Shown piece after piece: positions 11,296 through 14,788 of a stretch of 37,496 bases of DNA. The translations under genes and the position numbers were made by a program. A model generated the notes under the pieces. It was not told where the DNA came from and did no database searches. It worked only from the letters and a program-made list of their open reading frames with translations. This DNA comes from Patescibacteria group bacterium. Lineage in GTDB: Bacteria > Patescibacteriota > CPR2 > UBA1875 > CAIMLA01. Within the stretch, counting starts at the first letter, position 1, and every line of letters starts with the position of its first letter. The stretch lies in assembly GCA_041738615.1 (NCBI GenBank), contig JBGSPL010000002.1, positions 76,654 to 114,149 of the forward strand, read 5' to 3'.

Positions 11296-11664
11296 TTATT
11301 TAACGTCTACGGCAGGACCGATGGAGTTATCGGACTTATTTACCTTGAAGCTTAAGTAGACGGGTGCGCTCATAGTCCCCGTATTTTGGCTGAAGTTTAC
11401 CAGCCAGTAAGTGCCCTTATCCGTAATGTCACAAGGGTAGTTGGCCTTGATCGATGAAGGATAATGTTTTCGCACCAGTCTACAAGCATCGCTGTCGTCC
11501 TCGTTGACCGTAACTTTGTTGTAGTAATCTACGAGTACCCAGGAGCCAAATGCCATCATCCCTAAGAAAATCAGCACTGGGAAAATACCAATGAGCAAGG
11601 CGCGTTTACCGCGGATAAATCCCTCGTCGTTATTGAATTTTTGTTTTTTAGGCTTTTTTGCCAC
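11296..11664 (-). CDS. hypothetical membrane-anchored protein
   Basis: Basic N-terminus plus one TM helix (ALLIGIFPVLIFLGMMAFGSWVLV). It overlaps the upstream PMM gene by 17 nt. No family recognised. Confidence 0.6.
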   Translation of the reverse strand: MAKKPKKQKFNNDEGFIRGKRALLIGIFPVLIFLGMMAFGSWVLVDYYNKVTVNEDDSDACRLVRKHYPSSIKANYPCDITDKGTYWLVNFSQNTGTMSAPVYLSFKVNKSDNSIGPAVDVK

Positions 11665-13024
11665 CGATAGCCTCCGTTAGTTCGGCGAGTTTCTCTTCGG
11701 CCAGTTGCTGCGACTTCGCTTCTATATTTAATCTTATCACAGGCTCGGTGTTAGATCCACGTAGGTTCAGGTGCCAGTCAGCGAAATCTATGGAGACGCC
11801 GTCTGTGTAATCCATAGCCCCAGAGCTGTAAATGCTTTTTATCTTCTCTATAGACTCGGCGACACTATCTACGTAGAAATTAGTTTCCTCGATGGCGAAA
11901 TATTTACTTCGGTAGTCAGCGACAATTTCGGAAAGTGATTTGCCTGTTTTCGAAACCATCTCAGCAACGATGAGGAAGGGCACCATTCCGTTGTCGGTAT
12001 ACCAAAGATCCCGGAAGTAGTAGTGAGCCGAGGTCTCAGCACCAAAAATTGCATTCTCTTTGCGCATCCTTTCCTTGATAAATGAATGACCGGACTTGTT
12101 GATGGCGAGTTTAGAATTGTACCTGGCAGCAATTTCTGTCGGTAACCAGGTAAGCCGTGGGTCTACCACTACCGTCTCCCCTGGTGCTTTGCTAAGAAAA
12201 TAGTCCATCAGGAGGCCTGTAATGTAGTATGGCAAGATAAAGTTGCCTTTTTCGTCATAGAAAAAGCAGCGGTCGGCATCCGCATCCCAGATGACCCCGA
12301 AGTCCACAGCTGAACTGGCAACGAGCTCGGCAGTTTCTTGACGTAGGGCGGCCTGCATGGGATCCGGTTTACCCTTAGGAAAACTACCATCCTGCTCAAA
12401 ATTGAGTTTTACGAGCTCTATTCCTAGCGACTTTGCAATTGCTTCGGCATTTAGATTTGCAGCACCAAAGTTCGGATTTGCTACTACTCGAAGAGGCTTA
12501 ATGTCATTCGTATTCACAAATGTGAGCATCTTGGCAATGTAGTCGGCGTGGATTTCTATCGTTTCAATCTTCCCTTTCGTAGGGGCAGGTGTGAAGCTAG
12601 GGTTCATGGCAAGATCGCGAATCTCGGCAATGCCACTATCCATTGAAACGGGGCGAGACTCCTCGCGAACAATTTTCATCCCATTATATTCCTTGGCGTT
12701 ATGAGAAGCAGAGAGTGTGATTCCCCCGTCTAGTCCATAGTTCGCTACAGCAAAATAGAGCATATCGGTGGTGATAACCCCGATATTAACCACGTCTACT
12801 CCCATCTCAGTAAGTCCTGTAGCAGCAGCTTCCCAGAGCTCTGGGCCAGAAAGTCGGACATCTCTACCTAGGGCAACCTTCTTCTTGTCCGTCGAAGCAT
12901 TGGCGGAGTCGGATGGCTTCAGCCAGGAAGCATACGCCATAGCGATGTTTTTCGCGTCCATCGCATCCATTTCTGTTGGGTAAATACCTCGTATGTCGTA
13001 AGCCTTGAAAATTTCTGCTTTCAT
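11648..13024 (-). CDS. phosphomannomutase/phosphoglucomutase (alpha-D-phosphohexomutase)
   Basis: FKAYDIRG at the N-terminus, active-site loop TLSASHNAKEYNGMK, metal loop WDADADRCF, and GAETSAHYYF. Start trimmed from 13084 to ATG 13024 (AGGAG 5-6 nt upstream). Confidence 0.9.
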   Translation of the reverse strand: MKAEIFKAYDIRGIYPTEMDAMDAKNIAMAYASWLKPSDSANASTDKKKVALGRDVRLSGPELWEAAATGLTEMGVDVVNIGVITTDMLYFAVANYGLDGGITLSASHNAKEYNGMKIVREESRPVSMDSGIAEIRDLAMNPSFTPAPTKGKIETIEIHADYIAKMLTFVNTNDIKPLRVVANPNFGAANLNAEAIAKSLGIELVKLNFEQDGSFPKGKPDPMQAALRQETAELVASSAVDFGVIWDADADRCFFYDEKGNFILPYYITGLLMDYFLSKAPGETVVVDPRLTWLPTEIAARYNSKLAINKSGHSFIKERMRKENAIFGAETSAHYYFRDLWYTDNGMVPFLIVAEMVSKTGKSLSEIVADYRSKYFAIEETNFYVDSVAESIEKIKSIYSSGAMDYTDGVSIDFADWHLNLRGSNTEPVIRLNIEAKSQQLAEEKLAELTEAIGGKKA

Positions 13025-13040
13025 CTTGCTCCTAAATAGA

Positions 13041-13068
13041 TTGATAAACTTGTTGATAACATTATAAA
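13041..13068 (+). promoter_or_regulatory. candidate plus-strand promoter facing into the GC-rich region
   Basis: TTGATA (13041-13046), 16 nt, TATAAA (13063-13068). It overlaps the divergent PMM promoter. Confidence 0.4.
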
Positions 13069-13084
13069 CTATAAGTGATGTCAA
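13056..13084 (-). promoter_or_regulatory. candidate promoter of the phosphomannomutase gene
   Basis: On the minus strand: TTGACA (13084..13079), 17 nt, TGTTAT (13061..13056). Confidence 0.4.
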
Positions 13085-13111
13085 TGACGAGTACCCAGGG
13101 AGGCGATAGAC

Positions 13112-13450
13112 TTGAGTGTAGCTAGGCTGGTTACGGAGTTTCGACTCTGGCAGATAAGTCGTGGTGGTTGTTGCCAGCTAGACAAAGCGGTGCTCAACTC
13201 GAGAGCCTTCAGCCTGAAAGGTATCGTGATACCCGTGGAGGTGTTTCTCGGCCTGGTAGACTCGAGAAATGCCACGATGCGGGTTCACGCTACATTCGAC
13301 CCCTCAAAGGTCCCGAGTCTTGCGAACTTCACGGTTGTCTCCGTGGAATGCTCGCAGATGGAGGAGGTTTGGGTGGTCCCCAGAGTGGCCTTCGACCGAT
13401 ACAAGGAATCGGTTATGGCACCAGGGAGAGGACTTGCTCTCACGTCATGA
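13112..13450 (+). CDS. hypothetical GC-rich ORF (112 aa), possible AbrB/MazE-like fold; may instead be part of an RNA element
   Basis: GGAGG (13099-13103) lies 8 nt upstream of TTG 13112. In the second half of the ORF, 43 of 59 codons end in G/C by hand count and first positions are G-rich, whereas the other two frames lack this periodicity. SLKGIVIPVEVFLGLVDSRNATMRV weakly resembles a swapped-hairpin motif. Confidence 0.4.
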   Translation: MSVARLVTEFRLWQISRGGCCQLDKAVLNSRAFSLKGIVIPVEVFLGLVDSRNATMRVHATFDPSKVPSLANFTVVSVECSQMEEVWVVPRVAFDRYKESVMAPGRGLALTS

Positions 13451-13619
13451 GGACCCAGCCTAGAAACGGAGGTCTCAGGTGAAGAAGCTTCACAGTGGGC
13501 TCTGTCCGAAGTGCGACAGCGACTAACCGGCAAAGGAGGGCAAATATCTCGCCAGAGAGGTGACGCTCCTGGTCGGATATCCCCTAAGCGCTGTGTCCGC
13601 AGTGCGAGGAGTGATGCCG

Positions 13620-13653
13620 AACGCCCCGATACCGAGCTTGGTATCGGGGCGTT
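13620..13653. other. perfect 14-bp GC-rich hairpin without U-tract
   Basis: AACGCCCCGATACC - GAGCTT - GGTATCGGGGCGTT. It could end a plus-strand transcript from the GC-rich region. No T-run follows on either strand. Confidence 0.6.
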
Positions 13654-13666
13654 AGACTTTGGGATA

Positions 13667-13695
13667 TTCGAATTCTAATGTGAAAGACGTATAAT
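13667..13695 (+). promoter_or_regulatory. candidate promoter with the -10 box 6 nt upstream of the PRC-barrel ATG
   Basis: TTCGAA (13667-13672), 17 nt, TATAAT (13690-13695), then AGGTCT and ATG 13702. Confidence 0.35.
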
Positions 13696-13701
13696 AGGTC
13701 T

Positions 13702-14232
13702 ATGATAAAGTTTGCCTCAGAGCTTAGACTAAAACCAGTACTACTCCGTAAAGAGATGGCACTTGTTGGTGTGGTCGAGGATATTATAGTAAACCCAGAC
13801 AACGGAGAATTTGCAGGTATACTTGTAAGGGAAGGTTTCGGTAAGAAGCATCTAAAGACCCTGCCTCAAAAGGACTTACTCAGTATTACCTCTGAGTACT
13901 ACTTGATTTCGGAATACGGTGCACTGGGAGAGGTAGATGAGATAGTACGGCTGAAAGAAATTTTGGATAGGGATATCTCGATTGTTGGCGCCAAGACCTA
14001 TACTGTCAGCGGCAAATATCTCGGAAAGTGCCGCGATTTTACACTCAATCTGACATCCATGAAAATAGACAAAATATACGTAGACCCACCGATGCTATCT
14101 GCTGCTATGAGGGAGCATGTGATTGCTTTTCCGCAGATAGTTTCAATCGAGAAGGACAAGATTACGGTAGAGGATGCATTTGTGAAAGCACCAAAGACGG
14201 TGAAGGGCAAGCTCGCCGAAGCCGTAAGCTAG
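13702..14232 (+). CDS. PRC-barrel domain protein (two PRC-like halves)
   Basis: LRKEMALVGVVEDIIVNPDNGEFAGILV and VGAKTYTVSGKYLGKCRDFTLNLTSMKIDKIYV resemble the PRC-barrel pattern (G..lG.v.d...d...g.v..l.v). Confidence 0.7.
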   Translation: MIKFASELRLKPVLLRKEMALVGVVEDIIVNPDNGEFAGILVREGFGKKHLKTLPQKDLLSITSEYYLISEYGALGEVDEIVRLKEILDRDISIVGAKTYTVSGKYLGKCRDFTLNLTSMKIDKIYVDPPMLSAAMREHVIAFPQIVSIEKDKITVEDAFVKAPKTVKGKLAEAVS

Positions 14233-14362: not shown

Positions 14363-14788
14363 ATGACAGATTCAGTTACTGATCAGCGGGAAACGTATTA
14401 CGGCAGTGATGCTGTAGCGGAGCTCGCGAGCATTCGCGAAATGATCTCCAAGGGAGACCAGGTACCTTGGGCGATTCCGATGGGTTTTGACAGCCACGGC
14501 GCCTACAAGATCGCTGGCATCACACCGAGAGCCGACATCCCTGACTTCACCGAACTGGTTGTAGCCGTACCTCAGGGTGAAGAAGGCGAGGTAACCCTGG
14601 GATTGTTGCCCTGCCATGGACTATACGATCACAGAGACCTCACGATAGAGGTATTCTCGGTGAGGGGAACGAAGTGGTGGGTTTTGTCGGAGGCCGGGGA
14701 CATGGGGTACTTCGACTTGGCGGTCTGCTTGCTTCCCCAAGGCGCAGAGCCGCCGCAATCCATCAGTCGGGAAGACCTCCGGGCCTAG
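14363..14788 (+). CDS. hypothetical GC-rich protein (141 aa)
   Basis: ATG start with a weak purine-rich RBS. About 58% GC in two hand-counted 60-nt windows, versus about 45% in the adjacent PRC gene. The sequence is protein-like, but no family was recognised. Confidence 0.55.
   Translation: MTDSVTDQRETYYGSDAVAELASIREMISKGDQVPWAIPMGFDSHGAYKIAGITPRADIPDFTELVVAVPQGEEGEVTLGLLPCHGLYDHRDLTIEVFSVRGTKWWVLSEAGDMGYFDLAVCLLPQGAEPPQSISREDLRA

Follow-up and report, generated by a model that had tools for sequence, protein, structure and literature searches.

A likely lineage-specific operon, encoding a small protein and a putative micropeptide, in the gap between divergent PMM and PRC-barrel genes of a Saccharibacteria-type genome

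What is encoded in the spacer between the divergent PMM and PRC-barrel genes of this Patescibacteria group bacterium? The spacer lies in a stretch of 37,496 nucleotides of contig JBGSPL010000002.1 (the window), which belongs to an 814-kb assembly of four contigs with a completeness of 97%. PMM starts at 13024 on the minus strand and the PRC-barrel gene at 13702 on the plus strand, which leaves 677 nt between them (13025-13701); positions 13081-13660 have a GC content of 56.2% (326/580), compared with 46.7% for the whole window, and GGAGG occurs six times on the plus strand (13099, 13237, 13360, 13363, 13468 and 13535), with no copy of its complement CCTCC. A first-pass annotation, made from the letters alone, had given these figures, apart from that for the whole window, and we reproduced them; it had asked whether a mini-cassette of foreign origin or a structured RNA lies here. 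We consider it likely that the gap is a compact, lineage-specific Saccharibacteria operon, which encodes a 112-aa protein (ORF-A; ORF, open reading frame) and a micropeptide, whose alleles are exchanged among relatives and whose two products may act as a cognate pair. The anatomy of the operon is the part of this reading that we hold with high confidence; the hypothesis that protein and peptide form a pair with its own specificity is tentative and may well prove wrong.

The first GGAGG lies 8 nt upstream of a TTG codon at 13112, which opens an ORF of 112 codons as previously annotated. A search of 60 relatives with the 591-nt region as a DNA query matched only the genome of the window itself, whereas a translated search recovered an ORF of G001, a genome of the same genus (E = 2.4e-16), also located between PMM and the PRC gene; the homology is thus visible at the protein level alone. 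Six homologues with about 25-73% identity and lengths of 112-121 aa were identified (P0002, P0003, P0004, P0005, P0008 and P0009), and five of these occupy the syntenic PMM-divergent site. Two of those found in large protein collections, P0002 and P0003, share ~72% identity with ORF-A and are exactly 112 aa long; P0005, P0008 and P0009, from the same kind of collection, are 113-121 aa long and 26-46% identical by the alignment used. The existing annotation of the homologues is limited to ‘hypothetical protein’. The reading frame is intact in all seven members of the family, with no internal stop codons, and each has a Shine-Dalgarno (SD) sequence before a TTG, ATG or GTG start.

The ORF-A genes of the window and of L047 differ at 92 nucleotides, distributed as 23, 12 and 57 over codon positions 1, 2 and 3, with a ratio of non-synonymous to synonymous substitution rates (dN/dS) of 0.12. 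The corresponding counts are 24/11/62 between the window and L049 and 20/10/43 between L047 and L049, and dN/dS among close pairs ranges from 0.08 to 0.21. The preponderance of third-position changes and the low dN/dS indicate that 13112-13450 is a protein-coding gene under purifying selection. The coding periodicity that had been described for this ORF is borne out by this pattern and by the conserved homologues, with one correction: 39 and not 43 of the 59 codons in its second half end in G or C (GC content at third codon positions, GC3, 0.62 overall). As also described, the plus strand is open in all three frames from about 13270 to 13450.

The gene neighborhood is shared by most members of the family. 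In L047 the order is PMM (minus strand), ORF-A, PRC-barrel, rpsF, ssb and rpsR, and a divergent PMM gene adjoins ORF-A in L049, L050 and L051 as well, confirmed by Pfam for L050 and L051. The ORF-A cassette of L052 (106-943) is divergent to a gene for a 124-aa membrane protein with no PMM between them, showing that linkage to PMM is not obligatory; this membrane-protein gene is 64% identical to 11296-11664 of the window, which is located just past PMM.

Comparison of eight loci (the window, L047, L049, L050, L051, L052, G001 and G002) reveals a strictly conserved segment upstream of ORF-A. A consensus scan placed a plus-strand promoter at 13041-13070, where TTGATA-16-TATAAA (13041-13068) had been noted before, and the 14-mer ATTATAAACTATAA (13061-13074) is invariant at 14/14 columns across 8/8 loci and occurs only once in the 814-kb genome. 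The -10 boxes of the predicted plus-strand promoter and of a predicted minus-strand promoter for PMM overlap, such that the two occupy the same DNA and point in opposite directions. We ascribe the palindromic form (TTATA-AAC-TATAA) and the invariance of this core to the overlap: it is best taken as a pair of interlocked promoters that would drive PMM in one direction and ORF-A in the other. Downstream of the core, the alignment shows GAYGT, a 4-bp stem, ACG.GTACC and the SD in that order, and the stem covaries, with GTCA/TGAC in the window, L047, L049 and G002 and GTAG/CTAC in G001, L050, L051 and L052.

These elements and those downstream (Table 1) describe a unit that is bicistronic, sometimes tricistronic, and tightly spaced, with conserved gene order and signals. 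The predicted promoter, interlocked with that of PMM, would drive an mRNA that begins with the 5' stem-loop and SD, continues through ORF-A, next encodes the SD-led micropeptide and ends in two hairpins of the 3' untranslated region (UTR) and a terminator hairpin.

Table 1. Features assigned within the gap between the PMM and PRC-barrel genes, with positions in the window
Feature	Position	Strand	Description
Predicted promoter of the small operon	13041..13075	+	-35 TTGATA 13041-13046; -10 TATAAA 13063-13068, overlapping TATAAG 13070-13075
Predicted PMM promoter	13090-13061	-	TCGTCA-18-TATAAT; 10 of 12 matches in the consensus scan
5' leader	13076..13111	+	Stem-loop GTCAATGAC 13080-13088; conserved ACG.GTACC; SD GGGAGG 13098-13103, 8 nt before TTG
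ORF-A	13112..13450	+	112-aa cytoplasmic alpha/beta protein (predicted); homologues, codon-position pattern, AlphaFold2
SD and GTG mini-ORF	13468..13526	+	SD GGAGG 13468-13472; mini-ORF 13479-13526 encodes MKKLHSGLCPKCDSD, 15 aa, with Cys and acidic C-terminus
Hairpins H1 and H2	13551-13574 (H1); 13588-13605 (H2)	+	H1 with GUGA loop; H2 GCGCUGU-GUCC-GCAGUGC; RNAalifold on window, L047 and L049
Terminator-like hairpin	13620..13653	+	15-17 bp, 4-nt loop; inverted repeat

An SD-led mini-ORF is found downstream of ORF-A in 7/8 loci, all except G001; the one in the window had been pointed out previously and, being conserved in relatives, counts as a unit of its own. In the window, L047, L049, L051 and L052 its SD and start codon come 13-28 nt past the preceding stop, and the SD overlaps the ORF-A stop codon in L051 and L052; in G002 and L050 the mini-ORF comes after a middle ORF, termed ORF-B. 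The predicted peptides of the relatives are 16-32 aa long and, like that of the window, always contain Cys and have an acidic C-terminus: MKLGSGWCHVSADIGD in L047, MKLVSGCCHMNADIGD in L049, MPSKRPGWGIPPGMPQPTPPSERDSGCTDIGD in G002, MPCLGACGSCNDPICPLPHSDDD in L052, and, where the contigs end within them, MSCVCLGACGSCNDPTCPL... in L051 and MKSAGGVC... in L050. The C-terminus DIGD* is common to the peptides of G002, L047 and L049. The mini-ORFs of L051 and L052, whose ORF-A proteins have only 42% identity, differ at 9/17 aligned codons, 7 of the changes being synonymous and 2 non-synonymous, and by an in-frame 6-nt indel. This ratio argues that the mini-ORF is translated in that subclade, where, judged by its codon changes, the peptide is clearly constrained; in the window translation is probable.

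The SD sequences of ORF-A and the mini-ORF are among the six copies of GGAGG. The expectation of 0.8 copies given earlier is slightly low, since dinucleotide-preserving shuffles contain 1.47 +/- 1.18; the excess itself stands and is real but modest (P = 0.0035 for at least six copies). The copies at 13099 and 13468 are, from their context, working SD sites, and that at 13535 is partially retained in relatives; those within ORF-A (13237, 13360 and 13363) are absent from the homologues and are thus incidental Glu/Val codons.

The relationships of the cassette contradict those of its flanks. Between the window and G001 the first 120 aa of PMM are 95% identical and the ORF-A proteins 39%; both DNA flanks are 77-80% identical in this pair and the cassette is not alignable. 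The same two values are 78% and 73% for the window and L047, 60% and 73% for the window and L049, and 88% and 27% for L047 and L051. In the pair L047 and L049 the proportion of synonymous differences (pS) is 0.46 for ORF-A vs 0.78, which is saturated, for PMM, and at the DNA level the two loci are 63% identical over PMM, 87% over the intergenic leader, 81% over ORF-A and 86% over the tail. In G002 (locus L041, that is G002:C5, 1386-2271, minus strand) the same promoter and leader precede another gene set, consisting of a singleton 104-aa ORF, the 58-aa ORF-B and a 32-aa peptide ending in CTDIGD, and the 3' UTR is closer to that of G001 than to that of the window. ORF-B is homologous to the 57-aa ORF of L050 (pairwise E = 6e-7); the 104-aa ORF was considered as a diverged or frameshifted ORF-A and rejected, hhalign and a six-frame hmmsearch being negative and the ORF a database singleton. 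The simplest reading to which these comparisons point is homologous exchange or replacement among related Saccharibacteria, for which the conserved promoter and the region of the PRC gene would serve as the two anchors. The region proved free of flanking repeats, whether direct or inverted, and of integrase and recombinase genes.

In the proposed mechanism ORF-A and the peptide would be co-produced and work as a cognate pair, with contact through thiol or metal chemistry between the vicinal cysteines of the protein (motif GGCCQLD) and the Cys, His and Asp of the peptide. Diversity of the pair would be kept by recombination among related Saccharibacteria under diversifying or frequency-dependent selection, and the pattern may be that of loci diversifying at strain level, for instance pairs with a role in recognition, immunity or addiction. 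Hypervariable cognate-pair loci with recombination between strains (among them the pherotype loci comC/comD and agrD/agrB, and toxin-immunity or bacteriocin-immunity pairs) are similar in that a small peptide gene sits beside its partner, the alleles are incongruent with flanking housekeeping genes and the conserved flanks are possible recombination anchors; unlike in those loci, neither a signal nor a leader sequence is seen in the peptide, ORF-A lacks membrane segments, and domains of kinases, transporters, proteases or toxins are absent. Membership in those families is not supported, and the likeness would be one of evolutionary pattern alone. The L051 and L052 peptides may resemble SCIFF/ranthipeptide-type precursors of ribosomally synthesized and post-translationally modified peptides (RiPPs) and metallothionein-like peptides in their C-x3-C-x2-C...C followed by Asn, Asp and Pro, as the window peptide does in its C-x2-C-D-S-D; in contrast to RiPP precursors, they are much shorter, lack a leader, and have no radical-SAM or other maturase and no transporter adjacent. 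A more specific proposal, which we offer as speculation and expect to be incorrect, is that the slot between PMM and PRC-barrel/rpsF is, in this Saccharibacteria genus, a dedicated and strongly promoted ‘allele exchange’ site at which interchangeable pairs of a Cys-Cys protein of new fold and a micropeptide rich in cysteine and acidic residues serve as a strain-specificity module through a thiol- or metal-bridged complex. If so, the slot would be one where some lineages add a third small ORF or carry a wholly unrelated protein, and the module could tune self/non-self recognition, immunity or host interaction in an ultra-small epibiont through an undescribed type of complex.

Several points weigh against the operon reading, or parts of it. 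In the subclade of the window, L047 and L049 the changes in the mini-ORF are mostly non-synonymous (4 vs 1 synonymous between L047 and L049, by inspection), the start codon is lost in G001, and the mini-ORF of the window could be decaying or an untranslated stretch of 3' UTR. The protein-peptide interaction and its thiol/metal chemistry are pure inference. Accelerated evolution in G001, possibly after loss of the peptide, could partly explain its incongruence in place of exchange. Finally, the family has seven members, three of them on contigs of ~1 kb that cut off the peptide or the tail, which leaves tests of covariation and recombination low in power. The alternative that survives best builds on the first of these observations: ORF-A would be the only gene here, the mini-ORF an untranslated relic and everything past 13450 its 3' UTR and terminator. 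The variation in length between 15 and 16 codons and the position of the L047 and L049 mini-ORFs inside a long imperfect hairpin agree with this. However, the window, L047 and L049 each keep the SD GGAGG with a start codon 5-6 nt past it, and frame and stop survive there despite indels; the equivalent peptide is under clear purifying selection in L051 and L052, and we consider a relic rather unlikely.

With the operon still the favored reading, we turn to the origin of the cassette. The suggestion of a foreign mini-cassette was half right, in that the block behaves as an exchangeable unit discordant with its flanks; its foreign origin is unsupported. Had the cassette come recently from a high-GC donor, perhaps an actinobacterium that hosts the epibiont, this would explain why the GC content of ORF-A exceeds that of the adjacent PMM in every lineage (0.51-0.59 vs 0.41-0.51) and why its GC3 is above the genome mean of 0.50, and there are further GC-rich orphan islets nearby. 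Yet, among 1.84 billion cluster representatives and 5.8 billion clusters, homologues turned up at syntenic loci of Saccharibacteria type and nowhere else, and an exhaustive search of the 1.84 billion representatives with a hidden Markov model (HMM) returned the syntenic family and repeat-protein artefacts. All seven members of the family, among ~15 billion proteins, occur in Saccharibacteria-type syntenic contexts, which lends no support to a donor outside the phylum or to the higher-GC donor, such as Actinobacteria, envisaged in the first-pass annotation. The same site and promoter are shared by lineages that have diverged to 25% protein identity, arguing that the cassette is old in the lineage; searches of PHROGs and PADLOC were empty, the region has neither flanking repeats nor an integrase gene, and its GC excess is real without being exceptional, as 8.9% of ORFs of at least 100 aa in the genome are equally or more GC-rich. 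We regard recent foreign acquisition as improbable.

The large multi-repeat proteins that matched the profile (P0006, P0007 and P0010) were rejected as repeat or composition artefacts, P0006 being an animal-type Fn3/fibrinogen protein. Alignment searches of metagenomes for related loci found no true relative, and a scan of metagenomes for the promoter pattern found none. An integron cassette was also considered and rejected by inspection. The attC site is an imperfect hairpin of 57-141 nt with R''/R' core sites (RYYYAAC...GTTRRRY), extrahelical bases and a conserved structure; the hairpin of the window is 34 nt long and near-perfect, the GTTAGAC that follows it has a 5' partner, GCCGAAC, that is not complementary, and L047, G001 and G002 have no GTTRRRY at this place. 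The genome as a whole is mosaic in composition: ~9% of ORFs of at least 100 aa have a GC content of at least 0.55 against 47% for the genome, clustered in islands (for example C1:66.9-71.0 kb, C2:272-279 kb and C4:91.9-97.9 kb), and some of these ORFs may not be genuine but frames within or antisense to other genes, such as those for rRNA.

Could the region, or its 215-nt tail, rather be a gene for a structured non-coding RNA, whether of a new housekeeping type or a small RNA (sRNA), with incidental ORFs? The z-score of the minimum free energy is -4.2 to -4.3 for the whole region, against -1.1 to +1.1 for 16 control segments of the genome, and reaches -6.0 for the tail of the window and -6.4 for that of L047. 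Both 3'-UTR hairpins exceed the coding sequence in sequence conservation; the pairs of H1 and H2, which appear in single-sequence folds too, are kept in the window, L047 and L049 with one compensatory and several one-sided changes. The RNA of the signal recognition particle (SRP) and 6S RNA are moreover undetected in the genome (RF00169, RF01854 and RF00013 gave no match, the small SRP model even at E<=10), such that an unrecognized RNA must be somewhere. Against this, the substitution pattern of ORF-A is unmistakably coding, and the tail z-scores fall to -1.7 (window), -3.85 and -1.5 in three tails when the terminator hairpin is left out, indicating that the folding signal comes mostly from that hairpin; z-scores of the coding sequences among the homologues range from -3.95 to +0.34. 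In the window Rfam finds a single tRNA at the gathering threshold, and at E<=10 with permissive filters only noise of 18 bits or less over 12950-13800, in agreement with the earlier failure to fit RNase P, tmRNA, SRP or 6S RNA to the region; RNase P and tmRNA are encoded at C1:90927 and C1:130441. A housekeeping RNA would be conserved in the congeners G001 and G002, where this tail is not, and the DNA search of 60 relatives was empty. A large structured RNA is therefore unsupported, given the Rfam result, the tail without its terminator and the coding pattern, and we judge an RNA gene in place of the ORFs to be very improbable.

The hairpin at 13620-13653, present as previously noted, has 17-nt arms of 94% complementarity and is the sole inverted repeat of the region. 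Six of its stem pairs are altered on both sides in L047 (RNAalifold), and a hairpin stands at the equivalent place in G001 and G002; the U-tract is weak in the window (ACUUUGGG), falling short of the U-tract rule of the scan, and stronger in G001. H1, H2 and the terminator are ordinary features of a 3' UTR; an sRNA may also derive from this 3' UTR, which would supplement the coding reading and not replace it. The tail was also tried as the missing SRP or 6S RNA and rejected, there being no Rfam signal, no conservation in congeners and a helix-8-like motif elsewhere. That motif, GGG-GAAA-GGAGCAAC, lies on the minus strand at C3:~40.87 kb (~40800-40930), where 130 nt separate two tRNA genes, and has no Rfam match.

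Returning to the protein at the center of the operon, we find ORF-A without relatives of known family. No Pfam or NCBIfam family matches it or its homologues at E<=1, PADLOC profiles of defence and toxin-antitoxin systems gave no match for ORF-A, four homologues, or ORF-A' and ORF-B of G002, PHROGs had no match to ORF-A, to its homologues or to the ORFs of G002, and a sequence-profile search of the PDB returned nothing. Residues G18, C20, C21, D24, G37, E43, V44, V78, W87 and P90 are invariant in all seven sequences. Structure prediction, which had been proposed for this ORF, was carried out with AlphaFold2 on the seven-sequence alignment and yielded five concordant models with a predicted local distance difference test (pLDDT) score of 76-82 (best 82) and a predicted TM-score (pTM) of 0.72. 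The predicted alpha/beta fold has three helices and five strands in the order H-E-h-E-H-E-E-E-H: helix 3-16, strand 19-23, a short helix, strand 35-41, helix 42-51, strands 55-58, 73-80 and 83-90, and helix 91-102. For this confident model Foldseek identified no fold relative in the PDB (two models) and BFVD, with nothing below E = 0.04 and TM <= 0.40; in the PDB no match fell below E = 0.1. A profile search of the 28 species genomes of the order found the family restricted to the genus of the window, in 2/3 species. Going by sequence and predicted fold, ORF-A is a new family, with neither sequence nor fold relative, whose members come from this genus or from a few metagenome relatives that are unplaced.

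It is extremely improbable that ORF-A belongs to the swapped-hairpin antitoxins or transition-state regulators of AbrB/MazE/PrlF type and autoregulates the palindromic core of its promoter: ORF-A has the small size, the divergent transcription, a palindrome overlapping its -10 box, and in LKGIVIPVEVFLGLV a loose similarity to the G-x-V-x-IP motif (a G-x-V-x-(I/V)-P-x-E-V string) that had prompted the comparison, but no SpoVT-AbrB, MazE or other Pfam, NCBIfam or PADLOC profile matches any of five members, its predicted topology is unlike a swapped-hairpin barrel, the best Foldseek matches in the PDB (E 0.18, TM <= 0.37) include no AbrB or MazE entry, the operator-like core is invariant even in G002, where an unrelated protein replaces ORF-A, and a toxin-sized partner gene is absent.

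Taken as an operon, this ‘dark’ intergenic anomaly resolves into ordinary genetics, namely promoter, SD, coding sequence, micropeptide and terminator, and a candidate new RNA is removed. It resembles orphan small-protein genes with co-encoded micropeptides in its short ORF-A and SD-led micropeptide on a predicted single transcript, its narrow clade and its fast evolution, and differs from them in its fixed slot and strictly conserved promoter and leader, behind which the coding content is exchanged or replaced. Present evidence makes it an orphan operon of restricted lineage, unusual in how its alleles are exchanged, and not a new class of element. Its novelty would lie in a protein family without relatives, a Cys-rich micropeptide under selection in at least one subclade, and a cassette swapped behind an invariant promoter. 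Accessory genes retained in genomes reduced to ~0.8 Mb likely matter for the epibiotic lifestyle, and the unit of ORF-A and peptide is worth annotating and offers a small, tractable target for expression, pull-down and structural work.

Further observations concern the genes on either side. The PRC-barrel gene has a TATAAT (13690-13695) 6 nt before its ATG at 13702 and no SD; the arrangement TATAAT-6/7 nt-ATG recurs in L047, G001 and G002, and its mRNA is probably leaderless. Between the PRC gene and rpsF the window carries a 141-aa GC-rich ORF (14363-14788; GC 0.57, GC3 0.65) that matches no Pfam, NCBIfam, PADLOC or PHROGs family. L047 and G002 lack this ORF, with PRC-rpsF spacers of only 166 and 124 nt, and it is another lineage-variable insert. 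The PMM of the window has a 13-residue insertion after WLKP (WLKPSDSANASTDKKKVALGRD; 12880-12925, codons ~34-48), which is missing in G001, G002, L047, L050 and L051, where the sequence reads WLKPKKVALGRD or a close variant.

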